A DNA stretch of 32,000 nucleotides from Horticoccus luteus (GTDB lineage: Bacteria > Verrucomicrobiota > Verrucomicrobiia > Opitutales > Opitutaceae): the NCBI RefSeq assembly GCF_019464535.1, contig NZ_CP080507.1, forward strand, positions 780,001 through 812,000, given 5' to 3'. Below are positions 1-15,907 of the stretch, piece by piece. The position numbers and the translations under genes were made by a program. A model generated the notes under the pieces. That model saw only the letters and a list, made by a program, of their open reading frames with translations. It searched no databases and had not been told where the DNA came from. Position 1 is the first letter of the stretch. Every line of letters starts with the position of its first letter.

Positions 1-369
1 AAACGCGGAGCCGGCGGAGGCGCAGTAGAGGCCGGTGGCGCCGTCGGTGAGCGCGTCGGCGGCGAGTTGCGCGTCGGTGAGGGCTTGTTCGACGGCGCAA
101 AACGCGTAGAGGCCGTGGGGCGCGAGGCTGCGGAGCGTTTCGCGCGGGACGTTGTAACAGGGCGGAAACGTCCAATCGCGCCAGCTCGGCGAGGCGACGT
201 CGAAGGCTTTGATGGTGCCGGCGACTTTGACGGGCAGCGCGGGGTTGCCGAGAAACTCGACGGGGGCGAGGCCGGGCGTGAGCGTGCGCAGGCTGCGGGT
301 GACGGCAGCGCGGTCGTTGCCGATGCTCGTGATGAAGCCGAGGCCGGTGATGACCGCGCGGCGACTCAT
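1..369 (-). CDS. beta-ketoacyl-ACP synthase (KAS I/II, FabB/FabF-like), N-terminal part, truncated by the window edge
   Basis: My reverse-strand translation from the ATG at 369-367 reads MSRRAVITGLGFITSIGNDRAAVTRSLRTLTPGLAPVEFLGNPALPVKVAGTIKAFDV...GLYCASAGSAF. This is a typical condensing-enzyme N-terminus. It is absent from the ORF track because no stop lies in the window. Its ATG overlaps the ACP stop (ATGA at 366-369). Confidence 0.75.
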   Translation of the reverse strand, partial: MSRRAVITGLGFITSIGNDRAAVTRSLRTLTPGLAPVEFLGNPALPVKVAGTIKAFDVASPSWRDWTFPPCYNVPRETLRSLAPHGLYAFCAVEQALTDAQLAADALTDGATGLYCASAGSAF

Positions 370-752
370 GCCACAGGCGGACGGTGGGCGGGGAGCTTGC
401 GACGGACGAAGGCGCGCAGTTCGCCCACGGTGCGGATGCTCAGGATTTCCTCGTTGCTGATGCTGACCTGAAACAGGTCCTCGATGAAGAAAACCATTTC
501 CGTGATCGCGACGGAGTCGAAGCCGAGGTCGGCGATGAGCGCCTGTTGATCTTCGAGCGGAGCGGCGACGGCGGGCTTCTGGGGTTGGTGGTCGCGCACG
601 ATGGCGAGCAGGACGGTGTCGGCCGCGGCGGGATTACCCGTTTCACGGAGGCAGGCAAAGGCCTCGCGAACCTCGGGCGAGAAATGCCGGAGCAGCGGGA
701 CGTCGCCCGCGGGCGAAAGCGCGGTGTCGGAGTTGGAAGTGGAGGAGTCCAT
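366..752 (-). CDS. acyl carrier protein (long form, about 128 aa)
   Basis: The ORF-track protein contains LIADLGFDSVAITEMVFFIEDLF, an ACP phosphopantetheine-attachment (D-S-x) motif followed by helix II. It carries roughly 45 extra N-terminal residues compared with an 80-aa ACP. Its stop overlaps the KAS start, and its start lies 9 nt after the upstream halogenase stop. Confidence 0.8.
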   Translation of the reverse strand: MDSSTSNSDTALSPAGDVPLLRHFSPEVREAFACLRETGNPAAADTVLLAIVRDHQPQKPAVAAPLEDQQALIADLGFDSVAITEMVFFIEDLFQVSISNEEILSIRTVGELRAFVRRKLPAHRPPVA

Positions 753-761
753 GCGCGAAAA

Positions 762-2318
762 TCAGGGATGCGCCGGCGCGGCGGCCAAGGGGGCCGCCGG
801 GGCGGGCTGGGGTGAGGAAAACCATGTGCGCCAGCCTTCGGCGAGCTCGAGTCGCAGCCAGAGAAACAGCAGGCCGAGCACGCGGACGGGCAGGCGGCCG
901 TTGAACTCGTAGCTGGTGAAGGCGAAGTAGCGGCGGTCGTTGCGGCGGCCCCAGACGCCGCGGCGGCGGCGGGACTGCGCGATCGCAGCGAAGCGGCGGT
1001 TGTAGAGCGCCATCAGGCGGAAGGGCCACTTCGAGCGCGGGTGCGCGAAGGGAGGCGTATCGAGGATGCGATGACCGTGCTTGAACGGCTGGGCGACGAT
1101 GCCGAGGTAGTAGAGCCCGAGGTCGAGCCGGAACGCCAAGGTCATGAGCTCGAAGTCGCCGACGTAGTAATATTTGTCGCGGTAGAGGGCGTTAAACCAG
1201 CGGTCGCAGCTCTGGCGGAAATCGGCGTTGTGTTTCGCGACGAGCGGGGCGACCGGGCGGCCGCGCAGGCCGGCGTCGATCAACGAGACGGCGGCGCTGA
1301 CGGAAAACGTGATCCAGTCCATGCCGGGCGAATAGAGCGGATCGATGAATGCGGCGGCGTCGCCCACGAGCACGGCGCCGTCGGTGGCGAACGTGGTGGC
1401 GGAGTAGGCGAGATTGCGGCGGAAGTGGGTGTCGCCCTCGTGCGGAGTCGCGTGGGCCAAGAGTTCGCGCGCGGCGGGATGCACGCTGAGCATGGCGCGC
1501 AGGCGTTCGGCGAGGTTGGGGCCGGGCGGAAGTTCGGCGAGGCGTTGGTCGTAAACGACGCCGATGCTGACATCGCCGCCTTTGAGCGGAATGAACCACG
1601 CCCACCAACCGTAGCCGGTGAGATGATTGGTGGCGGTGGAGCGGACGCCTTTGACGCGTTGCGACCACGAGGGATATTTGGCGGCGAAGGCGGGGTCGTC
1701 GAAGAGATGCACGCCGGACCAGCGGCCCCAGCACGTGGCGGTGAGGTGTTCGTGATTGGGGCGGAGCCAGTCTTCCTGGCGGGCGAGGAGCGCGGCGACC
1801 CCGGAGGCATCGACGACCCAGCGGGCGGAGGTGGTTTGGGCGGCGCCGGTGGCATCATCCCACTCGACGGATTGAGCGGCGCCGGGGGCGAGGTGGATTT
1901 TCTTCACGCGCACGCCGCGGTGGAGTTTGGCGCCGTCGGTCACGGCGTTGGCGAGCACGTGTTCATCGAGGACGGCGCGGTCGACCTGGTAACCGGGGAG
2001 GCGGACGTTGTAGCCGGGGCCGGTTTCGCTGCACTGGTCGAGGGCGCGGGCATGGTCGTTGGCGAACCAGAAACGCATGCCCTGTTTCGGCAGGTGATGC
2101 TCGAGGAGGTGGCTGGTGAGGCCGAGGACGCGGCCGAGGAAATAGGCGCTGATCTCGACGGTGGATTCGCCGACGCGGCGTTTGAACTGCCCCGAGCGTT
2201 CGAGAATCAAAAGACGGATGCCGGGATGGCGGCGCAACAACAAGCAGGCCGTGGCGGAGCCGGACAAGGCGCCACCGACAATGATCACATCGCAGTCCGT
2301 TGTGGAGGCATCAGCCAT
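762..2318 (-). CDS. flavin-dependent halogenase-like FAD oxidoreductase
   Basis: I trimmed the start to the ATG at 2318 (MADASTTDCDVIIVGGALSGSATA), which places the GxGxxG dinucleotide fold at the N-terminus. It contains a WxWxIP-type motif (GYGWWAWFIPLKGG), a GES motif (RRVGESTVE) and a Lys near residue 78 (HLPKQGMRF). The C-terminus is hydrophobic (LPVRVLGLLFLWLRL). The 114 codons upstream in the ORF track are Pro/Arg/Ser-rich and look noncoding. Confidence 0.75.
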   Translation of the reverse strand: MADASTTDCDVIIVGGALSGSATACLLLRRHPGIRLLILERSGQFKRRVGESTVEISAYFLGRVLGLTSHLLEHHLPKQGMRFWFANDHARALDQCSETGPGYNVRLPGYQVDRAVLDEHVLANAVTDGAKLHRGVRVKKIHLAPGAAQSVEWDDATGAAQTTSARWVVDASGVAALLARQEDWLRPNHEHLTATCWGRWSGVHLFDDPAFAAKYPSWSQRVKGVRSTATNHLTGYGWWAWFIPLKGGDVSIGVVYDQRLAELPPGPNLAERLRAMLSVHPAARELLAHATPHEGDTHFRRNLAYSATTFATDGAVLVGDAAAFIDPLYSPGMDWITFSVSAAVSLIDAGLRGRPVAPLVAKHNADFRQSCDRWFNALYRDKYYYVGDFELMTLAFRLDLGLYYLGIVAQPFKHGHRILDTPPFAHPRSKWPFRLMALYNRRFAAIAQSRRRRGVWGRRNDRRYFAFTSYEFNGRLPVRVLGLLFLWLRLELAEGWRTWFSSPQPAPAAPLAAAPAHP

Positions 2319-2566
2319 TACGAGGCGGCCAATGAAAGTTCGCGGGCGGGGGCTCGCAACCGCAAAGATTCCCGCAAAACGCCGTGGCTGCGGCGCGCAG
2401 GCGCGGGCGGCTGATGGCCGAGAGAACGGACCTCGCGCGCCACGTCCGAGCGGCGGCGACCGCCAAGGGAGGGATGGGCAGGGGCAAGCGGGCGTGCAGA
2501 AGGGACTTTCAGGAGGGCGACCAAGTGCGGAAACGGCGTCGGGGCAAAGAACAACGCGAGATGAAT

Positions 2567-3835
2567 CTACGCGGCGGGCGGGGCGAGATTGAGCGCCTTG
2601 ATGGGAAAACCGAAGCGGCGCTGGACCCAGCAGATCGCGAGAAAAACGTGGAAGCGCCACCAGAGCGGCCAGATGAGTTTCGCGTGGCCGGCGACGATGG
2701 AGGTGAGGCCGGGACTGAGATTCCAGGGGACCTGCGTCTCCATGAAAACGGCGAAGCTGGCGTTATCGTAGAACGCTTGGATGAGGCGCTCGAACGGGCG
2801 GACGTGGTGCTTCACGGCGCGGGTGTAGCGGCGGCGTTCGCGGAGGGAGAGCGGGCGGTTTTGCCGATCGGCGCGCGCGGCGAGGGCGACGGCGGTCTGC
2901 GCGGACCAGAGGGAAACGTAAACGCCGGAGGAGAAAATCGGGTCGGAGAAACCGGCGGCGTCGCCGATGAGGAGGGAGCGTTCGCCGGCGAGATCGCGGC
3001 GGAAATAGCTGTAATCGCTGGTGACGTGATAGGGCGTCGTGGCGACGGAGCCGGCGAGGAGTTCGCGGAGTTTGGGCGCTGCGTCGACGGTGGCGGCGAA
3101 GAGGGCGGCGGGGGCGAGGCCGCTGCGGCGCATGGTCTCGGTCGTGGTGACGAGGCCGACGGAGGTGATTTCGGCGTCGATCGGGATGACCCAGAACCAG
3201 CCGTCGACCAGGCGCACGACGATGGTGTGGCCGGCGGGGCGGCCGGGGGCGCGGGCGACGCCCCTGAAGTGGCTGTAAATGGCGAGGCGTTTCGGTTGAT
3301 GCGGCGGATCGAGGCGGCGTTTTTGCGCGGTGAGGAGCACGTTATCGCGGCCGGTGGCATCGAAGAGCCAGCGGGTGGAGACGAACGTGGTGGCGCCGGC
3401 GTGTTCGAGCGCGACGCGGTGTCCGCCGTCGATCGGTTCGACGGCGCGGGCGGTGGTTTGGAAGCGGACTTCGGCGCCGAGGGAGGCGGCGTGATCGAGG
3501 AGGAGGGTGTCGAATTTCGCGCGATCGACCTGATAGGTGTAATCGAGGCCGCGCACGAAGCCGGTGCTGAAATCGACGGTTTTGGTGGCGGCACCGTCGG
3601 CGGTGTGGAAGAGCGCGCCGTATTTCGGAATGAACCCGGCGGCTTCGACCCGCGGCCAGACGCCGATGTCGCGGAGGATGGCGTTGGCCATCGGCAGGAG
3701 TGATTCGCCGATGCGGAAGCGGGGAAACGTTTCTTTCTCAACCACCAAGGTGCGCCAGCCGTGACGTCGCGCGCAGGCCGCAGCGCAACTGCCGCCGGGA
3801 CCGCCGCCGATCACGAGGGCATCGTAATCAAACAT
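2567..3835 (-). CDS. flavin-dependent halogenase-like FAD oxidoreductase (PltA/CmlS/CndH-like subgroup)
   Basis: MFDYDALVIGGGPGGS (GxGxxG), FPRFRIGESLLP, Lys71 in FIPKYGALF, WxWxIP motif (DGWFWVIPID), GDAAGFSDPIFSSGV, and a hydrophobic C-terminus (IWPLWWRFHVFLAICWV). Confidence 0.8.
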   Translation of the reverse strand: MFDYDALVIGGGPGGSCAAACARRHGWRTLVVEKETFPRFRIGESLLPMANAILRDIGVWPRVEAAGFIPKYGALFHTADGAATKTVDFSTGFVRGLDYTYQVDRAKFDTLLLDHAASLGAEVRFQTTARAVEPIDGGHRVALEHAGATTFVSTRWLFDATGRDNVLLTAQKRRLDPPHQPKRLAIYSHFRGVARAPGRPAGHTIVVRLVDGWFWVIPIDAEITSVGLVTTTETMRRSGLAPAALFAATVDAAPKLRELLAGSVATTPYHVTSDYSYFRRDLAGERSLLIGDAAGFSDPIFSSGVYVSLWSAQTAVALAARADRQNRPLSLRERRRYTRAVKHHVRPFERLIQAFYDNASFAVFMETQVPWNLSPGLTSIVAGHAKLIWPLWWRFHVFLAICWVQRRFGFPIKALNLAPPAA

Positions 3836-3980
3836 GGGTCGGGAAAACGCGCGGAGTGGGAGCGGCCGCGGTCGTTGAAGGCGGCGAGAGAGGTGAAGGC
3901 GAACGGGAAGGGAAAGGCATCGGCGAGGGGGGTGCGATGTTGGCTAGCATTCGGGGCGGTTTTGCCGAAGCTTAATTTGC

Positions 3981-4850
3981 ATGCGCTGCTGGTTTCTCCG
4001 CCGCCTCCGCGGGTTGATGTTGCTGACGACGGTGGTCGGGGCGACAGCGGTGTGCCGGGCGGTCGCGCCCTCGTTCGCGGGCAATCTTAGTGGTGAACTG
4101 GCGTTGCCGGCGTGGCAGGGGGCGCCGCCGTTGACGTGGAAAATCGAATTCACGGAGGGGAAGCTTACCGTGGCGGTGCAGGGCGAGGGGACGGATTTGC
4201 ACGCAACGTTAACGCCGGGACGAGGCGACGATCCGATGAGCTGGGACCTCGCGCCGGGAAAAATGGCGGTGCCGCAGTGGACGCAGGGAAAGTTGTCGCG
4301 CGGGCACGCGACCGTGAGTGGGAAGGGCACGTGGAGCGGGGGGCGCGTGCGCGGGGTGTTGCGCTTTGAGTTGCGCGATCTGGCGTTGGGCGAGCTGGTG
4401 CGACTGGGCGATCCGGAGAGGAAACGCGTGCGTTCGGCGGAGGGGCGGGTGGAGGGGGAGATCACGTTGCGACTCAATGGGGACGGCACGATGAATCTCG
4501 CGGACAGCGATCTGCATCTCGCGCCGGGGACGAAGGCGCTGGTGGCGTTGGTGCCGACGCCGGGGTTGCTGACCGATATCGTGCCGGCGGCGGCGCGGAA
4601 GAATTATCCGGGACTGGGGGCGATGGAGCGCGGGGAGACGCCGCTGGAGGCGACGGTGTTGAGTTTGGTTTATTTCGCCGGTGGCGATGCGCAGGGGCGC
4701 GCGGCGAAGGTGCGGTTGGAAGGACATCCGCAGGATCCGGGGCAGATCGCGCCGCTGGAACTGGAGATCAACCTGACGGGGCCGGTGGAGCGGTTGGTGC
4801 GCGAGATGTCGGATTCGCGGCTGCATTTTCAGGCCGGTGGCGGGCGGTGA
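3981..4850 (+). CDS. membrane-anchored YdbH-like (AsmA-like family) protein, short form
   Basis: ATG at 3981. N-terminal hydrophobic anchor or signal (LRGLMLLTTVVGATAVCRAV), followed by beta-rich repetitive sequence. The assignment rests mainly on its position directly upstream of ynbE-like and ydbL-like genes, which matches the conserved ydbH-ynbE-ydbL order. Confidence 0.45.
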   Translation: MRCWFLRRLRGLMLLTTVVGATAVCRAVAPSFAGNLSGELALPAWQGAPPLTWKIEFTEGKLTVAVQGEGTDLHATLTPGRGDDPMSWDLAPGKMAVPQWTQGKLSRGHATVSGKGTWSGGRVRGVLRFELRDLALGELVRLGDPERKRVRSAEGRVEGEITLRLNGDGTMNLADSDLHLAPGTKALVALVPTPGLLTDIVPAAARKNYPGLGAMERGETPLEATVLSLVYFAGGDAQGRAAKVRLEGHPQDPGQIAPLELEINLTGPVERLVREMSDSRLHFQAGGGR

Positions 4851-4898
4851 GAAACATAAGTTGTGCTCCGCGTTCCAATCGATCACCCTCGCTTCCGC

Positions 4899-5096
4899 AT
4901 GAAACGCTTCCTTTTGCTGTCGTGCATTGCGGCTGGCCTGCTGGCGGGCGCCGGCTGTGTGCAAGTCGCCGTGAAGCCGATCCATATCACCGTCGATGTT
5001 AACGTGAAGGTGGACAAGGCGCTCGACGATTTCTTCGGCGAGTTGGACAGCAAGTCGGCCACCATCGAGCGTTCGTCCCACACTTCCCAGCCATGA
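4899..5096 (+). CDS. ynbE: YnbE-like small lipoprotein
   Basis: I trimmed the start to the ATG at 4899 (MKRFLLLSCIAAGLLAGAGCVQVAVKPIHITVDVNVKVDKALDDFF). It has a signal peptide with a lipobox-like AGC and a short beta-rich mature part resembling YnbE. Its stop overlaps the next start (ATGA at 5093-5096). Confidence 0.65.
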   Translation: MKRFLLLSCIAAGLLAGAGCVQVAVKPIHITVDVNVKVDKALDDFFGELDSKSATIERSSHTSQP

Positions 5097-5473
5097 AACT
5101 CTCATTTCTACGCCTTGGACTTTTTGCACTGGTGTTGAGCGGCACGACCGCGGTCGTGCTGCCCGCGCAAGACATGTCAGGGTTGCGCGCCCGCATGGAG
5201 GAACGCCTGCCGAAGATCGATGAAATGAAAGCGGATGGCGTGGTCGGCGAGGACAACCGCGGTTTTCTCGATGCGCGGACGACGTTATCGACGGGCCAGA
5301 ACCGAGCGATGGTGGACGAGAATCACGATCGCAGCACGGTTTACGGGATCATTGCGCGCAACTCCGGCACGTCGGCGGCGGACGTGGGGGCGGCGCGAGC
5401 GAAGAAGATCGCCGAGACGAGCAAACCGGGCGTGTGGCTGCAGAAAGAAAACGGCGAGTGGTATCGGAAGTAG
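5093..5473 (+). CDS. ydbL: YdbL-like periplasmic protein (DUF1318)
   Basis: Signal peptide, then GVVGEDNRGFLD...NHDRSTVYGIIARNSGTSAADVGAARAKKIAETSKPGVWLQKENGEWYRK. This matches the YdbL/DUF1318 pattern (G-E-x-x-x-G-[YF]-L ... PG-x-[YW]-x-Q...G-x-W-x-K). Confidence 0.72.
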   Translation: MKLSFLRLGLFALVLSGTTAVVLPAQDMSGLRARMEERLPKIDEMKADGVVGEDNRGFLDARTTLSTGQNRAMVDENHDRSTVYGIIARNSGTSAADVGAARAKKIAETSKPGVWLQKENGEWYRK

Positions 5474-5601
5474 GCGGCGGGGCCACAGAGGCAGCAGGAG
5501 GGCGCGAGGTGGGCGGGGGCGTTGACCCGGATTGAAGATGATCAGTGGGGCTCGGAACCGAGATATTTCTCGGTGTGAAATTTGCCTCCGGTCTTTGGGT
5601 G

Positions 5602-5623
5602 CGCTCCGCGGCTCGGCGGAGCG
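5602..5623. terminator. GC hairpin between convergent ydbL-like and SRAP genes
   Basis: cgctccgc-ggctcg-gcggagcg forms an 8-bp perfect stem with a 6-nt loop. A second, weaker hairpin lies at 5557-5574 (accgaga-tatt-tctcggt). Neither has a clear U-tract. Confidence 0.25.
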
Positions 5624-5637
5624 AGAAATATGCAGGC

Positions 5638-6354
5638 CTAGAAAAGTTCAGGCTGCGTTTGCTTTGGCGGGGGCGGGGCGACGGGGGTGAGGATTTCGGG
5701 GACGTCGTTGCGCGGGGAATTCACAAGGCTCGAAATCGGCGTCGCTTCCATGTCTTCGGCAGGATGCGGAGCGGTCAAACCGGCCACCGCTTCAGGCGTG
5801 AGTTCGCCGGGGCGCAGCCAGGCGCGGGCTTCCTCGTCGTCGAGAATCGCGGGCATGCGGTCGTGAATGCGTTGCATCACGGCATTGGGGCCGGTGGTTA
5901 GAATCGCGAAGGTCGCGGGGCGGGTCTCCGTGGCTTTTTCGTAAACGCCGGCCATCACGAAGGGACGGTTGCCGCGGAGGTGAATGTCGAAGGGGAACTT
6001 CGTTTTCTCGTCGTAGCGCAGCCACTCGTAAAAACCGTCGGCGGGCACGAGGCAGCGGCGTTGCTGCACGGCGCGGCGGAAGAGGGCGTTGGTGACGATG
6101 CCTTCCGATTTGGCGTTGATCGGGGCGAGTTTCGGGCGGTCGGATTTGTCCCAAAACGGGACGAAGCCCCAGCGCATGAAAGAGGGGACGATCACATCGC
6201 CTTCTTCGTCCATGGTGAGCACGGGGAGATCGTAGCTGGGCGCGATGTTGTAGTGCGGAAATGTTTGGTCGGGGACCCAGTCGGGGATGTGAAAGGTGTC
6301 GCGCAAGTGGCGCGTGAGCACGTCGGTGTCTTTGATTCGATAGCGTCCGCACAT
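5638..6354 (-). CDS. SOS response-associated peptidase (SRAP/YedK family, abasic-site DNA-protein crosslink)
   Basis: I trimmed the start to the ATG at 6354, which gives MCGRY with the catalytic Cys2. Also present: NIAPSYDLPVL, PADGFYEW and IHDRMPAIL, the hallmark SRAP motifs. Confidence 0.88.
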   Translation of the reverse strand: MCGRYRIKDTDVLTRHLRDTFHIPDWVPDQTFPHYNIAPSYDLPVLTMDEEGDVIVPSFMRWGFVPFWDKSDRPKLAPINAKSEGIVTNALFRRAVQQRRCLVPADGFYEWLRYDEKTKFPFDIHLRGNRPFVMAGVYEKATETRPATFAILTTGPNAVMQRIHDRMPAILDDEEARAWLRPGELTPEAVAGLTAPHPAEDMEATPISSLVNSPRNDVPEILTPVAPPPPKQTQPELF

Positions 6355-6494
6355 GGGTGTGAAATTAACCAAAGGCCGGGCGCGGGCAAATCGTGGCGTG
6401 AGTGCGGACGGCGTGGCGTGCGCGAGGCGGCGGGAGCCGGCGTGCGTTGCGCGATGCGGCGTGCGTTAGCGCGAGGCGAAGGGGAGTCGTGACC

Positions 6495-6519
6495 TCCGGC
6501 CGCGCGGGTCGCGCGGCCG
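6495..6519 (-). terminator. strong GC hairpin immediately 3' of the nupC-like gene
   Basis: ccggccgcgcg-ggt-cgcgcggccgg forms an 11-bp perfect stem with a 3-nt loop. It starts 2 nt past the stop codon (6522-6524 on the minus strand). No U-tract follows. Confidence 0.35.
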
Positions 6520-6521
6520 GA

Positions 6522-7859
6522 TCACATGGGCACGAGGATGCCGGCGACGCAGGCGGAGAGGTAGCAGGCGATCGTGCCGCCGCAGACGGCGCGCACGCCG
6601 AGCGAGGCGAGGTTGGCGCGTTGCGTGGGCGCGAGGGAGCCGATGCCGCCGATCTGGATGCCGATCGAAACGATGTTGGCGAATCCGCACATCGCGTAAG
6701 TGAGAATGACGATCGTGCGCTGGTCGGTGAGGGTGCCGTCGGCCTTCATCTGGCCGAGTTGGAAGAAGGAGATGAATTCGTTGAGGACGGTGCGGGTGCC
6801 GAGGAGCTGGCCGGCCTGCAGGAGGTGACCCCAGTCGATGCCGATCAGCCAGGCGAAGGGCGCGTAGATGATACCGAGAACGAATTCGAGGGAGAAGGAC
6901 TTGAAGGTGCCGTTGGTCACGTGGTCGATCCAGGCGTTGAAGCCCGGATAGGTGAACACCGAGTGTCCGCCGAACGTGAGCGTGTGGGTTGCGCCGACCC
7001 AGCCGAAGATCGCGTTGAAGAGGGCGATGAGGGCGGTGAACGTGATGAGCATCGCGCCGACGTTGACGGCGAGGCGGAGGCCGTCGGTGGTGCCGAGGCA
7101 GATGGCGTCGACGAGGTTGGTGCCGATCTGCTCCTTGGAGACTTCGAGGTGGGTGTTCACCGGCTCGGTCTGCGGGAGGATGATCTTTGAAATCATCAGG
7201 CCGGCGGGAGCGTTGATGACGGAGGCGGTGATGAGGTGAGTGGCGAAGAGGACGCGTTGGTGCGGGTCGTCGCCGCCGAGGATGGCGATGTAGGCGATCA
7301 TGACGGCGCCGGCGATCGTGGCCATGCCGCCGATCATGATGGTGAGGATTTCCGAGCGCGTCATCGTGGCCAGGTAGGGCTTGATGAGGAACGGCGCCTC
7401 GGTCTGGCCCAGAAAGATGTTGGCGGAGGCGCTGAGGGTTTCGGCGCCGGAGAGCGGCATCGCTTTTGAGATGACCCAGGCGAAGACGAAGACGATTTTT
7501 TGGAGGATGCCCAGGTAGTAGAGCATCGAGGTGAACGCGGAGAAAAAGATGATCGCGGGGAGGATGCCGATGGCGAAGATAAGCCCGTGCTTGGAAGTGT
7601 CGGCGAGGGAGCCGAAGACAAACTTCACGCCCTCGTTGGTGAAGCCCATCAAGCTGACAAAACAGGTGCCGACCCACTCGACGACGCTGCGGATCGGCGC
7701 GACGTAGAGCACGAGCACGGCGAAGAGAAATTGCAGGACCACGCCGGCGATCACGATGCGCCAGGGGATGCGGCGGCGGTTATAACTCAGGGCAATCGCG
7801 ATACCGATGAGCACGGCGTATCCAAACAGGCCGCGCCCAATATGGGTGAATGTTTCCAT
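6522..7859 (-). CDS. NupC/NupG-family concentrative nucleoside transporter
   Basis: I trimmed the start to the ATG at 7859 (METFTHIGRGLFGY...). Multi-pass membrane protein with GAETLSASANIFLGQTEAPFLIKPYL and MCGFANIVSIGIQIGGIG, which are characteristic CNT/NupC motifs. Confidence 0.85.
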   Translation of the reverse strand: METFTHIGRGLFGYAVLIGIAIALSYNRRRIPWRIVIAGVVLQFLFAVLVLYVAPIRSVVEWVGTCFVSLMGFTNEGVKFVFGSLADTSKHGLIFAIGILPAIIFFSAFTSMLYYLGILQKIVFVFAWVISKAMPLSGAETLSASANIFLGQTEAPFLIKPYLATMTRSEILTIMIGGMATIAGAVMIAYIAILGGDDPHQRVLFATHLITASVINAPAGLMISKIILPQTEPVNTHLEVSKEQIGTNLVDAICLGTTDGLRLAVNVGAMLITFTALIALFNAIFGWVGATHTLTFGGHSVFTYPGFNAWIDHVTNGTFKSFSLEFVLGIIYAPFAWLIGIDWGHLLQAGQLLGTRTVLNEFISFFQLGQMKADGTLTDQRTIVILTYAMCGFANIVSIGIQIGGIGSLAPTQRANLASLGVRAVCGGTIACYLSACVAGILVPM

Positions 7860-9185: not shown

Positions 9186-10274
9186 ATGCTTATCGGAGTC
9201 CCCAAAGAAATTAAAATCGGTGAAACGCGCGTCTCGATGACGCCGAGTCTTTGCCGCCGTTGCGTTTCGCTCGGCGGCAATGTGGTGGTGCAAAAAGGCG
9301 CCGGCGAAAGTGCCGGCTTCACGGACGCGGAGTATCGGGCGGCAGGCGCGGCGATCGCGACCACCGCGCAGAAAGTCTGGCGCAGCGCCGACCTGATTCT
9401 GAAAGTGAAGGAGCCCCTCGAGGCGGAATACGGGCATCTGCGCGAAGGGCAGACGTTGTTCACATACCTGCATCTCGCAGCGGGAGCGGAGCTGGCGAAG
9501 GTGTTGTTGAAAAAGCGGGTTCTCGGGATCGCTTACGAGACGGTGGAGGGCGTCGATGGCCAATTCCCGCTGCTGAAACCGATGTCGCAAATCGCGGGGC
9601 GGCTCGCGATCCAGATCGGGGCGTATTTTCTGCAATCGCAGCACGGCGGCTCCGGGGTGTTGCTCGGCGGCATCCCCGGCACGATGCCCGGCCACGTGGT
9701 GGTCGTGGGCGCGGGGAATTCCGGGGCGCATGCGGTGCAGATGGCGGTCGGCATGGGCGCGCGGGTGACGGTGCTCGATCTCGACACCCGCAAACTCGAG
9801 GCGCTCGACATCGAATATCGCGGGCGCGTGGTGACGTTGATGTCGAATCCGGCGAACATCGAGCTGGCGGTGGCGAGTGCGGATTTGCTGGTGGGCGCGG
9901 TGCTGATTCCGGCGGCGAAGGCGCCGACGGTAGTGAAGAAAAAAACGGTGGCGAAGATGCGGCCCGGCAGCGTGATCGTGGACATCGCGATCGACCAGGG
10001 CGGTTGCATCGAGAGCATTCATCCGACGTCGCATGAATCGCCGACTTACCGGCAGCACGGGGTGATTCATTACGCGGTGCCGAACATGCCCGCGCTCGTG
10101 GGGCGCACGTCGACGATCGGGTTGACGCAGGCCACGGAGCCTTACGTGGCGATGCTGGTGCAGAAAGGCGTGGCGCGGGCGCTCGCGGAGCACAAGGGCC
10201 TCGCGCGCGGTGTGAACACGCAGGACGGCAAGATCACGTACGACGCGGTCGCGAAGGCGCTCGGCTATTCGTGA
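9186..10274 (+). CDS. ald: alanine dehydrogenase
   Basis: I trimmed the start to the ATG at 9186 (MLIGVPKEIKIGETRV). Also KVKEP, the NAD-binding VVVVGAGNSGAHA, VDIAIDQGGC and HYAVPNMPA. Confidence 0.9.
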   Translation: MLIGVPKEIKIGETRVSMTPSLCRRCVSLGGNVVVQKGAGESAGFTDAEYRAAGAAIATTAQKVWRSADLILKVKEPLEAEYGHLREGQTLFTYLHLAAGAELAKVLLKKRVLGIAYETVEGVDGQFPLLKPMSQIAGRLAIQIGAYFLQSQHGGSGVLLGGIPGTMPGHVVVVGAGNSGAHAVQMAVGMGARVTVLDLDTRKLEALDIEYRGRVVTLMSNPANIELAVASADLLVGAVLIPAAKAPTVVKKKTVAKMRPGSVIVDIAIDQGGCIESIHPTSHESPTYRQHGVIHYAVPNMPALVGRTSTIGLTQATEPYVAMLVQKGVARALAEHKGLARGVNTQDGKITYDAVAKALGYS

Positions 10275-12169
10275 AGCTTCGCGCGATCAGGCGCGGTGCG
10301 GCGGCGAACGCCAAGGCGGGCGGCGGATCGCTGGTGCGCGGGGCAAAGGCGTTCGTGCGCGTGGCGGTGACGGTCACGGCGGCGGTCGTCGCGGGTTTGC
10401 TCGCGGTCGCGGCGCGCACGGCGGAGGCGGGTGACGGCTGGCTGGCGGTGGAGACGGAGCATTTCACGGTGTTGACAACGGGCGCGGCGGGGCCGGCGGA
10501 AAATTGGGCGCGCGAGCTGGAGATGTTTCGCATCGGTCTCGGGAAGATCATGCCGGCCAACGCGGCGAAGTTGCAGCCGGTGGCGGTGGTGTTGTTTCCG
10601 AACGACGCGGCGTTTCAGCCGTTCAAGCCGGTGCAGAACGGGCGGTCGGCGCAGGTGGCGGGATTCTTCGCGCGGGCGGACGGCGTGAACGCGATCGGCC
10701 TCAGCGCGAGTCGCAAGGCGGAGGAGACGCGCCGCGTCATTTTTCACGAGGCGACGCACTGGTTTTCCAACGCGCTGGATGAGCCGCTGCCGGTGTGGCT
10801 CGACGAGGGAACGGCGGAAGTTTACTCGACGTTTCACGTGACGGGTGAGCGGGAGTTTGTGGTGGGCGAGCCGCCGCCGGACAGCGTGCGGTTGCTGCGC
10901 GCCCGGGGTCTGCCGCCGCTGGAGGCGTTGGTGAACCGGCCGCGCGACCGGCTCGATCTGAACGGCGGGGAGGAGACGGCGCGGTTTTACGCGGAGGCGT
11001 GGTTGTTCGTGCACTGGCTGATGTTTGGCGAAGCTTCGCCGGGCACGGGCGCGATCCTGCATTATCGCGAGGAGTTGCGCGCGACGGGGGATCCGGCGCG
11101 CGCGTTTGCGGCGGCGTTTGGCGGCAACTATGGCGACGTGCAGCAGCGGTTGGAGGACTACATGGCGTCGGGCCGTTACATCCGGCAGAAATTTACGCTG
11201 GCGGCGGGCGAGGTGGTGCGAGTGTCGGCGGCGCGGCCGGTGCGGCCCGGCGAGGTGGAGTTTGCCTTGGGGGCGTTGTTGCTCGGAGCGCAGGGGGCGC
11301 CCGCGGCGCTGCCGTATTTGCAACGGGCGGTGGCGTTGAACCCGAGCGAATCGCGGCGGTGGAGTTCTTTGGCGTTTGCGCAACTGCGCAACCATGACGA
11401 CGCGGGGGCGTTGCAATCGCTGGACCGGGCGACGGCGATGGGTTCGCCGGATGCGTTGGTGTGGACCAATCGCGCGGCGTTGCGGCTGGCATCGCACGGG
11501 AACGGCCAGGGCGTGTTGTTCAGCGCGGACGGAGCGGTGTTCGCAGCGGCGGCGGCGGACTATCGAAAAGCGCTCACGCTCGATCCGCTGTGTCGCGCAG
11601 CGTATGTGGGGCTTGCCGGGGTGGCGGCGGGCGCGGAGCCGGCGGACGCGCGGGACGTGGGGCGGTTGCGGCGCGGGCGGGAACTGTTTCCCCACGACCC
11701 GATGATCCGGGTGGGTTACGCGTGCGTGCGGCTGGCGACGGAGCCGATCGCGGCGGAGCGGGAATTGCAGGCGGTGTTGCGGCAGAAAACGTTGTCACCG
11801 GCGACGCGGTTGATCGCGGAAGGGGCGTTGCAGGGGCAGCGGTGGACGCGGCTGGCGGCGGAGATTGCGACGCAGAGTGCGGCGCGAAATTACGCGGCGG
11901 TGGTGCAGGCGATCGATGCGGGACTGGCGGCGGGTTTCAGCGAACCGAACCGGCGGGAGTTGGTGGCGTTGCGGCGGCAGGCAGACCAGATGCGGCGGAT
12001 TCAAGACGCGGTCGATGGGATGAACCGCGGGGAGATCGAGCGCGCGCGCGGGCTGTTGCAGGCCGTGGCCGCGGAGGGTCCGGCCACGACGGAGATCCGC
12101 GACGAGACGCAGCGGTTGTTGCGCGAGTGCGAGGCGCGGCGGCCGAAAGCGCGTCCGCGGCGGCGGTAG
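10271..12169 (+). CDS. secreted/anchored MA-clan zinc-peptidase-like protein (Peptidase_MA_2/DUF1570-like) with C-terminal TPR-like repeats
   Basis: Signal/anchor segment AFVRVAVTVTAAVVAGLLAVAARTAEA. HEATH is encoded at 10745-10759 and followed by PVWLDEGTAEVY, giving the HExxH...W-x-x-EG-x-A-x-Y pattern. The C-terminal half is Ala/Leu-rich and helical-repeat-like. The start is uncertain: the GTG at 10271 overlaps the ald stop, and in-frame alternatives exist up to about 10334. Confidence 0.6.
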   Translation: MKLRAIRRGAAANAKAGGGSLVRGAKAFVRVAVTVTAAVVAGLLAVAARTAEAGDGWLAVETEHFTVLTTGAAGPAENWARELEMFRIGLGKIMPANAAKLQPVAVVLFPNDAAFQPFKPVQNGRSAQVAGFFARADGVNAIGLSASRKAEETRRVIFHEATHWFSNALDEPLPVWLDEGTAEVYSTFHVTGEREFVVGEPPPDSVRLLRARGLPPLEALVNRPRDRLDLNGGEETARFYAEAWLFVHWLMFGEASPGTGAILHYREELRATGDPARAFAAAFGGNYGDVQQRLEDYMASGRYIRQKFTLAAGEVVRVSAARPVRPGEVEFALGALLLGAQGAPAALPYLQRAVALNPSESRRWSSLAFAQLRNHDDAGALQSLDRATAMGSPDALVWTNRAALRLASHGNGQGVLFSADGAVFAAAAADYRKALTLDPLCRAAYVGLAGVAAGAEPADARDVGRLRRGRELFPHDPMIRVGYACVRLATEPIAAERELQAVLRQKTLSPATRLIAEGALQGQRWTRLAAEIATQSAARNYAAVVQAIDAGLAAGFSEPNRRELVALRRQADQMRRIQDAVDGMNRGEIERARGLLQAVAAEGPATTEIRDETQRLLRECEARRPKARPRRR

Positions 12170-12290
12170 CGGAGTGAGGAAAGAAGGCGTCGTGAAACGG
12201 TGAACAGTCGTTAACGGCTTGTAACCGGGGAGGGGAAGTGATGCGTCTCACGTCGCGCTGACCGGCCGTCGGCATCGCGCTTTCCCCCTC

Positions 12291-13049
12291 ATGAAAAAAT
12301 CCCTGTTCTGGCGGTTGGGTGGCGGGCTTTTGCTGTTGAGCGCGGGCTGGCTTCCGGCGCAGGACACGCTGGACATCGGCGTGCGCTCGTCGATCGAGTT
12401 GCCGACATGGAAGCGGCCCAAGCCCGGGACGATGCCGGCAGCGGACGCGCAGGAGGGCCGGCTTTTCATTCTCGCTCCACCGGAGCGCATTCACTCGCTG
12501 GAGAAGCTGGTGCGGCCGGTGAATACGGAGCCACTGGTGGAAGAACTGTGGCGCCAGTTGGTGGCGCATGGCTTCCAGCCGGCGGCGCCGGGCCAGACGC
12601 CGGATATCGTGGTGACGTTGCACTACGGACGCGGCTATTTGCGCAATCCGTATATCGACTCCTACGCTTCAGCGGTGGACGAATCGACGTCGACGCCGAC
12701 GGTGATGATCACCGTGCCGACGATCGACGTGAAGAAGATCGGGATGGAAGAGAAAATCCAGCGGGCGCAATACGAGAAACTGTTGCTGGCGGTGACGGCT
12801 TGGAAGTATGTGAAGCCTGAAGCGGGGCGGAAGCAGAAGCCGGTGCGGTTGTGGCGGACGACGATCCTCGTGGATGACCCGGACCACCGTGATCTCAACG
12901 AACTGGCCGCGCGGATGCTCAATGCGGGCGCGGGTTACTTCAACAGCGACGTGGACAAAGAGGCGGAAATCCACGAGCCGATGCGCGAGGGGCGCGTCGA
13001 GATGGGCGAACCGGTGGAAGTGAAGCGACACGAGAATTCAACGAAATGA
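12291..13049 (+). CDS. secreted hypothetical protein, paralog 1 of a tandem pair
   Basis: ATG at 12291. Signal peptide MKKSLFWRLGGGLLLLSAGWLPAQD. It is full-length collinear with the next ORF (see findings). I recognise no family with confidence. Confidence 0.65.
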   Translation: MKKSLFWRLGGGLLLLSAGWLPAQDTLDIGVRSSIELPTWKRPKPGTMPAADAQEGRLFILAPPERIHSLEKLVRPVNTEPLVEELWRQLVAHGFQPAAPGQTPDIVVTLHYGRGYLRNPYIDSYASAVDESTSTPTVMITVPTIDVKKIGMEEKIQRAQYEKLLLAVTAWKYVKPEAGRKQKPVRLWRTTILVDDPDHRDLNELAARMLNAGAGYFNSDVDKEAEIHEPMREGRVEMGEPVEVKRHENSTK

Positions 13050-13864
13050 ACACAAATACGATGAAGGCGACTTGGTGGGTGAGAGCGGCACTGCTGGTCG
13101 GCGGCGGGCTGGCTGGTGGGTTGATCGGCGCGAGCGCGCAGGAAGGCACCGGCGACGTGGAGATCATTGTGCGCACGCAGGTGACGGAGGGGAAGAGGGC
13201 CGCCAAGCCGGGCGGCGACTCGCTGCAGCAAGCAGCAGCAGAGCACGGGAAAGCGTATGTGCTGCTGCTCGCGGAGCAGCCGAAGTCCATTTACAAACTC
13301 GTGAATCCGGTGGATCCGCAGGCGATCGCGGATGAGGTGTCGAAGCAACTCGACGCGCATGGTTTCCACCGCGTCGCGCCCGGGGCGAAGCCGGACATCG
13401 TGATCACCGTGAAATTCGGCCGCGGGATGATGCCCAATCCGTATTATGACGACACGTCGGCGATCGACGACACGATGCCCGACCCAGGCAACTGGATCGA
13501 TCCGGCCAGTGCGCCGCAGATCACCGTGACAAGTCCCAAACTGGCCCAACGGCTCGCGGTTGCGGGCGTGAGCGGCAAGGCGACGAAGGCGCAGTATGAA
13601 AAACTTTTCGTGACGGTGCGCGCGTGGAAATACCCGTCGTCGCCGCAGGAGAAACCGGAGGTGTTGTGGATCGCGGCGATGAACGTCGACGATCCCGATC
13701 ACCGCGATCTGAACACATTTTACAAGGCGATGATCGCCGCGGGAGCGCCGTATTTCGACCGCCGCTTGGACGAGGAGGAAGTGAGCGTGCGGCGGCCGTT
13801 GCGCAATGGACACGTGGAGATCGGCGAGCAGGTGGAAGTGGCACGCGAGCCGGAGAAGAAGTGA
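13046..13864 (+). CDS. secreted hypothetical protein, paralog 2 of a tandem pair
   Basis: The ATG at 13046 overlaps the previous stop (ATGA). An alternative ATG at 13061 gives MKATWWVRAALLVGGGLAGGLIGASAQE. It shares the motifs PDIV[VI]T, GRG..NPY, AQYEKL, AWKY, VDDPDHRDLN, AGA.YF and G.VE.GE.VEV with the preceding protein. Confidence 0.65.
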   Translation: MNTNTMKATWWVRAALLVGGGLAGGLIGASAQEGTGDVEIIVRTQVTEGKRAAKPGGDSLQQAAAEHGKAYVLLLAEQPKSIYKLVNPVDPQAIADEVSKQLDAHGFHRVAPGAKPDIVITVKFGRGMMPNPYYDDTSAIDDTMPDPGNWIDPASAPQITVTSPKLAQRLAVAGVSGKATKAQYEKLFVTVRAWKYPSSPQEKPEVLWIAAMNVDDPDHRDLNTFYKAMIAAGAPYFDRRLDEEEVSVRRPLRNGHVEIGEQVEVAREPEKK

Positions 13865-15897
13865 AATTTGCGCGGGGGGGGGTGAGCCGGATTGGAGCGC
13901 GATTTTTAACGTGGGCGGTGTTCGTCGCGGCCCTGGCGCTGGTGCGCGCGGTGGGCGCGCCGGAGGAGGAGGCGCGGCATCATTTCGACATTCCGGCCGG
14001 CGCGGCGGAAACGACGCTGCGGAAATTCAGCAAGCAGGCGGGCGAGGACGTGGTGTTTCCCAAGGATTTGGTGCGCGACGTGCGGACGGCGGCGGTGCGG
14101 GGCGATTTCGAGGCGCAGGAAGCGTTGGAACGCATGACGCAAGGCACGCCGCTGGTGGTGAGCCGCCGGTCGCCGAAGGCGGCCTTGGTGCTCGCGCGGC
14201 GCGCGGATTCGCCGGCGCAGATCATCGCGCTGCCGCCCTACCTGGTGGAAGACTCCGTCACGCCGCCGTGGCGTTATGCGCAGGCGCCGGGACTGGAGGT
14301 GATTTCGCGTTGTCCGGACGATTTTGTAAGCGAACTCGTGGCGACCAACGATCGTTTGCGGCAGTTGCTGGAGTTGATTCTGCCGGCGCGGTTGCAGTGG
14401 CATAGCGATGTGCCGACGGCGTATGTGTTGCTCAGTGACCAGACCTCGCCGGCGGCGACGCGGGAATTGCTGGCGAAGCTGCAGGAGCGGGCGACCAGCG
14501 GGGCGGAGGTCACGGTGCGGACGATCCCCAACTACCGGTTTGCCGACGCCGATGCGCTCGCGGTGTTTTTTATTTTCAACGAGAATCTCGGAACGCCGCA
14601 GCAACTGGTGCTGACGCCGGGCTACCTGCGCTATTTGATGGAGAACCGGGTGCCGGCGCTGCCGCGCTGGTTCGTCGAAGGGCTGCTGAAAATTTATGAG
14701 AACGCGCAGGTGACGACGACGCCGTTCGGGACTTCCCTCGCGCGCGCCGACACGGCGTTTTTCCGGCCGCGGACGGACTTTTCTCGCGGCGTGCCGCCGG
14801 CGGCGGAGGACCGGAATCGCATCGTGCTGCCGCCGGTGACGTGGAGCGCCCTGACGGCGTCGGGAAAAAAGGACGACGACGCAGAGAAGGCCGGCTGGAT
14901 GCCGCTGGCGGCGCTGCTGGCGGAGGGACCGGCTCAAGCGGAGGCGGATCCCACCGCGGTTTTGCGGGGCGAGGAAGCGGCGCTGCTGATTCGCTGGGCC
15001 TTGGACGATGCGAAGGGCGAACGGGCGGAGGCGTTGTGGAGGTTCGTCGACGCGTGCAGCCGGGCACCGGCGGCGGAGCGGGCGTTTACCGCGAGCTTTG
15101 GGCTGACTTACGCCGAGGCGGAAACGCAGCTCCGCAAGTATTTGCCGAGCGTGGGGAAGAAATCCGTTGTGCTGCGTCGGACGCAGATGGACGAAGCGCC
15201 GACGGTGGAGTTGCGCGATGCGACGGCGGAGGAAGTGGCGCGCCTCAAGGGCGATCTCAGCCGGCTGGAGGTGGGCTACATCCGGGAATTTCAGCCGGTG
15301 CTCACGGAAAAATATCTCGCGCAGGCGCAGCGGGTGCTCCGGCGCGCCTACGACCGTGGCGATCGCGATCCGCGATTGCTGGCGATCATGGGATTGTGCG
15401 CGTGTGACGCTGGTGACGACGCGGCGGCGCGGCCGTTGCTCGAGGCTGCGGCGGGCGCGGGCGTGGTGCGGCCGAGAGTATATTTCGAACTGGCCCGCAT
15501 CGTTTACGCCGAGGCGCGCGCGCACGCGGCCGGGGGCGAACTCGCGCGAGCGGAGCAGGAGCAGGTGCTGAGGTGGCTGGCCGCGGGTCGTCGGCAGGCG
15601 CCGGCGCTGCCGCAGGTTTACGATTTATACGCGGCGCTGTGGCTGCAGGCACGGACGCGACTTGAGCGGGGCGACCTCGCGGTGTTGGACGAAGGGCTGG
15701 CGCTCTTTCCGCGCCGGGTGCGGCTCATTTACGGCGCGGCGATGTTGAACGCCTTGAGTGGGGAGGCGGCGCGGGCGGTCGCGTTGACGCAGCAGGGTCT
15801 GGCGCTGGCACCGGAGGCGACGATGCGGGAGCATTTGGAAAAGCTCCAAGCAGTGCTGACGACGGCAGAGGCGGCGGAAACAAAAAAGGGCCGCTGA
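13861..15897 (+). CDS. secreted STN-domain protein fused to an HExxH-less peptidase_MA-like domain and TPR-like repeats
   Basis: The proposed GTG start at 13861 overlaps the previous stop (GTGA). An alternative GTG lies at 13882. Signal peptide ARFLTWAVFVAALALVRAVGA. The STN-like segment HHFDIPAGAAETTLRKFSKQAGEDVVFPKDLVRDVRTAAVRGDFEAQEALERMTQGTPLVV spans about 13978-14202. The middle domain is collinear with gene 10271-12169, but TPGYL replaces HEATH. The C-terminus is TPR-like. Confidence 0.6.
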   Translation: MKFARGGVSRIGARFLTWAVFVAALALVRAVGAPEEEARHHFDIPAGAAETTLRKFSKQAGEDVVFPKDLVRDVRTAAVRGDFEAQEALERMTQGTPLVVSRRSPKAALVLARRADSPAQIIALPPYLVEDSVTPPWRYAQAPGLEVISRCPDDFVSELVATNDRLRQLLELILPARLQWHSDVPTAYVLLSDQTSPAATRELLAKLQERATSGAEVTVRTIPNYRFADADALAVFFIFNENLGTPQQLVLTPGYLRYLMENRVPALPRWFVEGLLKIYENAQVTTTPFGTSLARADTAFFRPRTDFSRGVPPAAEDRNRIVLPPVTWSALTASGKKDDDAEKAGWMPLAALLAEGPAQAEADPTAVLRGEEAALLIRWALDDAKGERAEALWRFVDACSRAPAAERAFTASFGLTYAEAETQLRKYLPSVGKKSVVLRRTQMDEAPTVELRDATAEEVARLKGDLSRLEVGYIREFQPVLTEKYLAQAQRVLRRAYDRGDRDPRLLAIMGLCACDAGDDAAARPLLEAAAGAGVVRPRVYFELARIVYAEARAHAAGGELARAEQEQVLRWLAAGRRQAPALPQVYDLYAALWLQARTRLERGDLAVLDEGLALFPRRVRLIYGAAMLNALSGEAARAVALTQQGLALAPEATMREHLEKLQAVLTTAEAAETKKGR

Positions 15898-15907
15898 AAA
15901 GCGGCCC
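15888..15907 (-). terminator. hairpin between convergent genes, probably an intrinsic terminator for the cyclophilin gene
   Basis: gggccgc-tgaaaa-gcggccc forms a 7-bp perfect stem. On the minus strand it is followed by TTTTTTG (complement of caaaaaa at 15881-15887). The loop contains the TGA stop (15895-15897) of the plus-strand gene. Confidence 0.45.

Follow-up and report, generated by a model that had tools for sequence, protein, structure and literature searches.

Cell-surface signalling (CSS) is usually seen as a property of TonB-dependent outer-membrane transporters. The classical transducers FecA, FpvA, FoxA and PupB have an STN domain at their N-terminus and, behind it, a flexible linker that contains a TonB-box-like strand motif; they have FecR/FecI-type partners and are encoded next to an extracytoplasmic function (ECF) sigma factor and FecR pair (PMC11637429, PMC7186176). 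VreA of the Pseudomonas aeruginosa PUMA3 system, which functions together with VreI/VreR, is soluble and carries an STN domain but no barrel (PMC2729926); it was the only barrel-less exception found in the papers searched. No paper on the families described below, or on FecR systems in Verrucomicrobia, was found in the literature search. Here we describe four open reading frames (ORFs), named A, B, B' and A', on the plus strand at positions 10271-15897 of a 32,000-nucleotide stretch of the genome of Horticoccus luteus (Verrucomicrobiota, Opitutaceae; contig NZ_CP080507.1, positions 780,001 to 812,000), hereafter called the window (Table 1). These genes do not make up one mirrored system. A resident gene A lies beside a three-gene module fragment, B-B'-A', and it is with moderate confidence that we read the latter as something separate from A, an orphan, barrel-less CSS-type module whose sigma factor and FecR would be encoded elsewhere.

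The gene layout given in a preliminary description of this DNA was read directly in the sequence: four genes on one strand, an ATGA overlap of B with B' (13046-13049), a GTGA overlap of B' with A' (13861-13864) and a 121-nt gap between A and B (12170-12290). The third-position GC content (0.77-0.86) indicated that all four ORFs are coding. Signal peptides of the window proteins were judged by inspection of the sequence, and the N-termini were signal-peptide-like, in keeping with the envelope location that had been proposed. The same description had taken the inner genes, and likewise the outer genes, for paralogues, and both relationships were confirmed. B and B' were 41% identical (E 1e-50). 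For A and A', BLASTP gave 25% identity over 59 amino acids (aa; E 0.002), and profile-profile alignment (hhalign) gave a probability of 99.2% and an E value of 1.9e-19 over 445 columns. As the profile alignment covers the peptidase-like part as well as the tetratricopeptide repeat (TPR) part, the likeness is not mere TPR low complexity.

The A' protein is 100% identical to an H. luteus protein annotated by NCBI as 'STN domain-containing protein', with a start 19 codons downstream of the GTG at 13861. Its STN domain (PF07660) scored 28.9 bits against a Pfam cut-off of 28.4 and, in a phmmer search of the PDB, matched the signalling domains of FpvA, HasR, FemA and PupB (E 4e-5 to 2e-2). In the AlphaFold model of A' (confidence score, pLDDT, 78), a disordered linker joins the STN domain to an alpha/beta domain, and a TPR solenoid modelled with confidence follows. 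Neither Plug (PF07715) nor barrel (PF00593) was matched by Pfam in A', and the model, rich in alpha helix, consists beyond the linker of the alpha/beta domain and TPR helices. A' has the N-terminal STN domain and the linker of the classical CSS transducers, but no Plug domain and no 22-strand barrel, and it cannot be an outer-membrane transporter. A is related to the DUF1570 / Peptidase_MA_2 proteins with TPR repeats, with which it shares HExxH and a downstream Glu, and A' is homologous to A along its whole length, but in the A' family the metal and catalytic residues have been lost. The positions equivalent to HExxH in A' are P253, G254 and R257, and the metal and catalytic positions of A (HExxH and two Glu) align to P, G, R, E and K. 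HExxH was present in none of 70 A'-family ORFs, and the entire family appears from its sequences to consist of pseudo-peptidases. A' keeps all of the residues that are invariant in its family. The view that A retains HExxH (HEATH) and that A' has lost it and bears an STN domain was thus upheld. Foldseek searches with the A' model returned TPR proteins only, and were uninformative on the peptidase-like domain.

The family-invariant linker motif of A' follows directly on the STN domain. In the form [IV][IV]xLPP[FY]xVE it was present in every A' protein, immediately behind either the STN domain or the signal peptide, STN-less members included. The pattern [IV][IV]xLxP[FY]xV, which A' proteins show, also occurred in four verified TonB-dependent receptors of the same lineage in the fetched loci, where the Plug domain begins some 20-25 aa further on, and an STN-bearing TonB-dependent receptor (P0058) had it at the same STN-linker position. 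It is at this pre-plug position that TonB-dependent receptors have their TonB box (PMC11637429). Outside A', these receptors and small PDZ proteins, the motif was found in only 2 of 4903 ORFs. From its sequence and placement, the QIIALPPYLVED motif of A' may bind TonB. The PDZ proteins are small and secreted, carry a TonB-box-like motif (e.g. VVKLDPFEV), and are encoded downstream of A' and a small lipoprotein gene; in some genomes a PDZ module is fused to the A' C-terminus (P0035, P0037, P0038).

The neighbourhoods of the A' family were examined in one genome per species, using an 8-sequence alignment and a search of six-frame ORFs with seed proteins. Each of the 52 loci obtained came from Opitutaceae, Opitutales or near relatives within Verrucomicrobiota. 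Among the A' genes with enough upstream sequence, 11 of the 16 that bear STN lay directly 3' of a pair encoding an ECF sigma factor and a DUF4880+FecR anti-sigma factor. None of the 36 STN-less A' genes lay directly 3' of FecR (Fisher p = 7e-8 against the STN-bearing genes, the loci not being phylogenetically independent). The sigma factors (Sigma70_r2/r4) and FecR proteins (DUF4880 and FecR) were confirmed by Pfam, with a weak FecR_C match on the FecR of L009 only. It had been stated that no sigma factor or FecR explains the cluster; this is true of the window, but the STN-bearing relatives of A' mostly stand directly after such a pair. These STN-bearing relatives were at most 47% identical to A'. 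In L014 the order is sigma-FecR-B-B-STN-A', on one strand with short gaps, so that the B-B-A' order of the window is repeated with the regulators at the place of A. L009 and L016 both show the arrangement ExbB-ExbD-TonB(-TonB)-sigma-FecR-STN-A', and ExbB-ExbD-TonB lay within 10 kb in four further loci. STN-less TonB-dependent receptors, convergent to sigma-FecR-STN-A' and directly after it, were observed in L027 and L032 (Plug verified in L027). As the layout hints, a separate receptor might obtain its signalling domain from A'.

STN-less A' genes were found in a second setting, in operons (-4 to +31 nt) with a Peptidase_S9 gene of 730-900 aa in 22 loci, and in L035 and L047 the two alternate as S9-A'-S9-A'. 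The pairing of a dead metallopeptidase with a serine peptidase suggests that STN-less A' may be a substrate-binding or regulatory subunit. A' might be primarily a TonB-interacting periplasmic adaptor for the processing or uptake of peptides or proteins, in which the STN domain is an optional regulatory part and B and B' are outer-membrane-associated, LptE/PelC-like partners. The invariance of the TonB-box-like motif even in STN-less A', the six loci with ExbBD-TonB nearby, the convergent STN-less receptors of L027 and L032, and the match of the B' fold to the outer-membrane-associated PelC, LptE and TraT are all in its favour, as are the S9 operons. However, genes for an S9 peptidase, for TonB or for a receptor are absent from the window, neither B nor B' has a lipobox, and the fold matches are modest. 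We regard this explanation as improbable, and it overlaps with an orphan CSS-type module, which it does not exclude.

Many A' genes are followed by a gene of a small lipoprotein family (174 and 193 aa; lipobox Cys; conserved G.T.EMVY.ALG.PD...ADG...W.Y), which also forms tandem arrays beside sigma-FecR and may have some likeness to BamE. This family was considered as an equivalent of B and rejected, being a different family with no Pfam match.

B and B' had been said to belong to no recognisable family, which proved not to be the case, both being weak relatives of DUF4136 (below threshold) with a fold like that of LptE and PelC. B' is 100% identical to an H. luteus protein annotated by NCBI as 'DUF4136 domain-containing protein', and its score against PF13590 was 19 bits, below the gathering score of 32.8; B gave no match to PF13590. 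Weak sub-threshold matches to DUF4136 were present in 17 of 32 B-family members (best E 7e-4). The AlphaFold model of B' (pLDDT 79) matched PelC, TraT, DUF4136 and LptE in Foldseek with E values of 2e-5 to 5e-3 and modest TM-scores of 0.3-0.6. Against the DUF4136 structure 4F54 (BT2437), the E value was 1.3e-4 and the TM-score on the target 0.47, the values for PelC, TraT and LptE being similar. A PDB sequence search with B' gave nothing meaningful. B and B' differ from DUF4136 in being about 100 aa longer, in the motifs DDPDHRDL, AGAPYF and YGRGxLxNPY, in the fusion of some family members to STN, and in the want of a lipoprotein Cys, which we take to be a trait of the DUF4136 family; on inspection, no Cys was seen around the predicted cleavage sites LPA/QD and ASA/QE. 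Going by the model, B and B' can be classed as divergent proteins of the DUF4136 / LptE / PelC fold. The titles and abstract openings retrieved for DUF4136 held nothing functional.

A scan of metagenomes with the B alignment yielded 59 non-redundant loci, 21 of which had at least two B genes. In nine metagenome loci, a B domain was fused to a C-terminal STN domain and the gene lay next to FecR or sigma-FecR. In these fusions a Pro/Ala linker connects the B-family (DUF4136-like) domain with the C-terminal STN domain, and in L119 and L125 the fusion gene comes directly after sigma-FecR. In five further loci, arrays of two to five B genes were divergent from sigma-FecR. The fusions are evidence of the Rosetta-stone type, which would imply that B-family domains act with the STN/FecR pathway, and on their domain content they seem to add another type to the STN proteins that lack a barrel.

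An ECF-type motif is common to the stretches that separate sigma genes from B arrays: (A/T)ACGG(G)AAA, a spacer of about 13 nt and (C/G)GTCT(T/C)A. A weight matrix built from seven such sites also matched upstream of B genes with no sigma gene nearby (L065, L103, L110), upstream of a small-lipoprotein array and upstream of two A' genes. In the window, the candidate promoter before B was the second-best match of about 64,000 positions, and about 0.003 such matches would be expected in the 121-nt gap. In the L007 orthologue, GCGTCTCACG was kept at the same distance from the start codon of B. This is suggestive of transcription of B by an ECF sigma factor encoded elsewhere. The matrix also scored high inside sigma genes, about 200-250 nt before FecR (GCGGAAATCG..CCGTCTT.G). 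These matches were treated as false positives in a conserved coding stretch; they are probably a coincidence of the coding sequence, an internal FecR promoter being the alternative.

Several observations weigh against a CSS-type role of B-B'-A'. The 32 kb of the window contained no gene for a sigma factor, for FecR, for TonB/ExbBD or for a TonB-dependent receptor. Five STN-A' genes, that of the window included, had no adjacent sigma/FecR pair, which means that the coupling is not obligatory, and a B gene was present in only 2 of the 52 A' genome loci (L014 and L018). Only about a quarter of the B loci were linked to sigma/FecR; as some three quarters had no regulator nearby, the link of B to sigma/FecR would have to be facultative or in trans. 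The promoter match before B was not significant window-wide (observed 14.3, resampled maxima 14.3 +/- 1.4) and its -35 half was poor. The linker motif is read as a TonB box from where it lies and from its likeness to the motif of local receptors. Some of these points could also mean that there is no functional unit at all, and that lineage-specific envelope genes are being shuffled in a permissive slot, A' being an orphan with an STN domain that no longer signals. The slot between the alanine dehydrogenase and cyclophilin genes does vary between close relatives, and most B genes are singletons or arrays away from sigma/FecR. This is nevertheless unlikely in our view: the stop/start overlaps of B with B' and of B' with A' favour co-translation, the B-B-STN-A' order recurs behind sigma-FecR in L014, and A' keeps its family-invariant residues and an STN domain above the Pfam cut-off.

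The A protein has its HEATH motif at aa 159-163 (nt 10745-10759), and H159, E160, H163 and E179/E183 were invariant across the A family. DUF1570 was matched by 6 of 8 relatives of A and Peptidase_MA_2 by 3 of 8; A itself matched no Pfam peptidase model at E <= 1. A PDB sequence search with full-length A returned TPR proteins only, and a PDB search with a profile of its N-terminal domain gave no match. The longest A ORF opens at a GTG which overlaps the stop codon of alanine dehydrogenase (GTGA, 10271-10274). In relatives, the gap between the two genes is 40-57 nt, and an internal GTG at 10355, which gives a more conventional signal peptide, may be the true start of A. By its sequence, A is probably a secreted, catalytically active zinc metallopeptidase-like protein that is independent of B-B'-A'. 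The literature search found only an incidental mention of DUF1570, and no characterised member of the DUF1570 / Peptidase_MA_2 and TPR proteins.

In a 7.2-Mb Opitutaceae genome (L063) and on a JGI contig, the A orthologue was the only gene of the quartet in the slot that alanine dehydrogenase and cyclophilin flank. In the closest relative available (L007/L008), with DNA-level identities of 94% for A, 88% for alanine dehydrogenase and 93% for cyclophilin, the slot holds A2-A-A3(split)-B, without B' and A', the three tandem A paralogues being listed at 1327-6769. A3 is split there into ORFs of 177 and 420 aa, possibly by a frameshift or as a pseudogene. Among close relatives the slot contains A only, a hydrolase and A, A2-A-A3-B, or A-B-B'-A'. 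In the family tree, B grouped with the copies of L007, of which it is the orthologue, and of L018, which follows A'. B' fell in a clade of singletons, its closest homologues (at most 68% identity) being single genes in unrelated neighbourhoods. A recent tandem duplication as the origin of B and B' was rejected, as B' falls in a different subfamily. Since A orthologues occur alone, L007 has no B' or A', and B' groups with singletons, we take A for the resident of a variable slot to which B, B' and A' were added.

These comparisons bear on the proposal of the preliminary description that A-B and B'-A' are halves of one dedicated system, with an active and an inactive peptidase, each with a small partner, acting together in proteolysis or signalling. 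Its idea of an apparently active and an inactive copy of one fold, and of the STN domain pointing to signalling, has stood, but that of self-contained peptidase-plus-partner modules has not. The genes are on one strand with two start/stop overlaps and no terminator was predicted in the A-B gap, A/A' and B/B' are true homologues, and B-family genes recur beside members of the A/A' superfamily. Against this, the order of the quartet was repeated in no other locus among the about 120 fetched, and only sub-units recur: sigma-FecR-B-B-STN-A' (L014), A'-B (L018 and L114) and A...B (L007). The want of synteny between homologues, which the preliminary description had named as a refutation, is thus seen for the four genes taken together. 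The B pair of L014, 61% identical, arose by an independent, recent duplication. Together with the solitary A orthologues, the three A paralogues and one B of the nearest relative and the placing of B' with stand-alone genes, this makes a single four-gene system very unlikely.

In the mechanism that we propose for B-B'-A', the three genes would form a translationally coupled operon encoding the periplasmic half of a lineage-specific, barrel-less CSS variant. The STN domain of A' would bind to a FecR-type protein, and a ligand, either a peptide or a protein, would be sensed by the dead active-site cleft and the groove of the TPR repeats, which take the place of an outer-membrane barrel. The linker motif might offer a contact to TonB. 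As for B and B', they would be either soluble co-sensors in contact with A' or regulated cargo; we infer that they work with A' because their family is elsewhere itself fused to STN. The module would signal to, or be transcribed by, a sigma/FecR pair acting in trans.

By analogy, the nearest precedent for B-B'-A' appears to be VreA. Like A', VreA is a signal-peptide-bearing, largely soluble STN protein with no plug or beta-barrel, and its partners are an ECF sigma factor and a regulator of the FecR type, its second domain having been proposed to contact envelope partners (PMC2729926). The regulatory pair is absent from the window. The second domain of VreA is small and resembles the C-terminus of TolA/TonB, whereas A' has a 540-aa dead gluzincin and TPR body and a TonB-box-like linker. 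Neither A' nor the B-STN fusions have any sequence relationship to VreA outside the STN domain, and the phylum differs.

Table 1. Features of the H. luteus window and related features in the fetched loci (L numbers; minus strand in the fetched loci marked (-))
Feature	Position	Strand	Description
Gene A	10271-12169	+	632 aa, GTG start; secreted DUF1570 / Peptidase_MA_2-like domain, then TPR repeats
Candidate ECF-type promoter	12222-12251	+	TAACCGGGGA-N9-GATGCGTCTCAC, about 40 nt before B
Gene B	12291-13049	+	252 aa; signal peptide and divergent DUF4136-like domain, no lipobox Cys
Gene B'	13046-13864	+	272 aa; B paralogue
Gene A'	13861-15897	+	signal peptide, STN, linker, dead gluzincin-like domain, TPR; in-frame GTG at 13861
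STN domain of A'	13978-14202	+	aa 40-114
QIIALPPYLVED motif of A'	14218-14253	+	aa 120-131; low-confidence, predicted-disordered linker; family-invariant
Predicted pseudo-peptidase domain of A'	14266-15180	+	aa 136 to about 440
TPR-like helical repeats of A'	15226-15888	+	aa 456-676, pLDDT >90
Terminator-like hairpin with T-tail	15888-15907	-	serves the convergent cyclophilin gene, marks the cluster end
B-STN fusions	L072 7750-9141(-); L119 1611-2816; L125 6893-8035; L105 650-1801(-); L088 5778-6980(-); L075 113-1483		
Sigma-internal matrix matches	L072 ~10062-10092(-); L079 ~2778-2808(-); L125 ~5543-5573; L098; L076; L080		
Peptidase_S9 with STN-less A' (examples)	L035 7506-15851; L047 3799-11641; L041 7632-11671		
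STN-less TonB-dependent receptors	L027 12179-15031(-); L032 12022-14952(-)		
Small lipoprotein genes	L009 10008-10532, 13186-13767; L125 325-4439; L044 12304-17166		7 copies in L125, 6 copies in L044
PDZ proteins with motif	L016 8441-9163; L055 12180-12998; L015 7641-8132; L017 5550-6284; L039 1659-2114		

The genes flanking the cluster are housekeeping genes, with a nucleoside transporter, a hexapeptide transferase, dihydrofolate reductase (DHFR) and alanine dehydrogenase upstream, and a convergent cyclophilin, a SIS-domain protein, RecF and a TauE exporter downstream. No credible terminator other than that of the cyclophilin gene was predicted, and the only Rfam match, below threshold, was on this terminator. 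No promoter was found by the sigma-70 promoter scan. The repeat search returned the B/B' paralogy only, with no flanking repeats and no mobile-element boundaries. Third-position GC was 0.86 for A, 0.80-0.81 for B and B' and 0.77 for A', and the GC content at 12001-14000, the B/B' region, was slightly lower (0.64). This contrast is a weak hint of a different history of B-B'-A' and A. GC skew was positive in all 1-kb bins of the window (1-32000; 0.06 to 0.36), and was unusually strong, uniform and independent of gene orientation. At the left end of the window (366-3835, minus strand), an ORF for a PP-binding (carrier protein) domain and two adjacent tryptophan-halogenase-like FAD (flavin adenine dinucleotide) enzymes might be a fragment of a secondary-metabolite cluster.

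The window holds an orphan copy, and the lineage-wide pattern is of greater interest than the window itself. Two unrelated soluble families of one lineage carry STN domains behind sigma/FecR in many genomes, which would make barrel-less STN sensors a recurring design. The Opitutaceae proteins annotated as 'STN domain-containing' and 'DUF4136 domain-containing' are probably components of ECF signalling, and the uncharacterised families of DUF1570-like pseudo-peptidases and DUF4136-like proteins gain a testable role. More tentatively, and as a possibility that we rate as less probable than not, Opitutaceae and their relatives may use STN as a portable module on soluble periplasmic sensors (a dead gluzincin and TPR body with a genuine TonB box, or a DUF4136-like domain with a C-terminal STN). 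These would form a barrel-less class of sigma/FecR signalling in which TonB might pull on a soluble protein, with B-B'-A' of H. luteus working in trans and B and B' presenting the ligand. Should the TonB-box-like motif prove real, it would pose the question of how TonB acts on a soluble protein.

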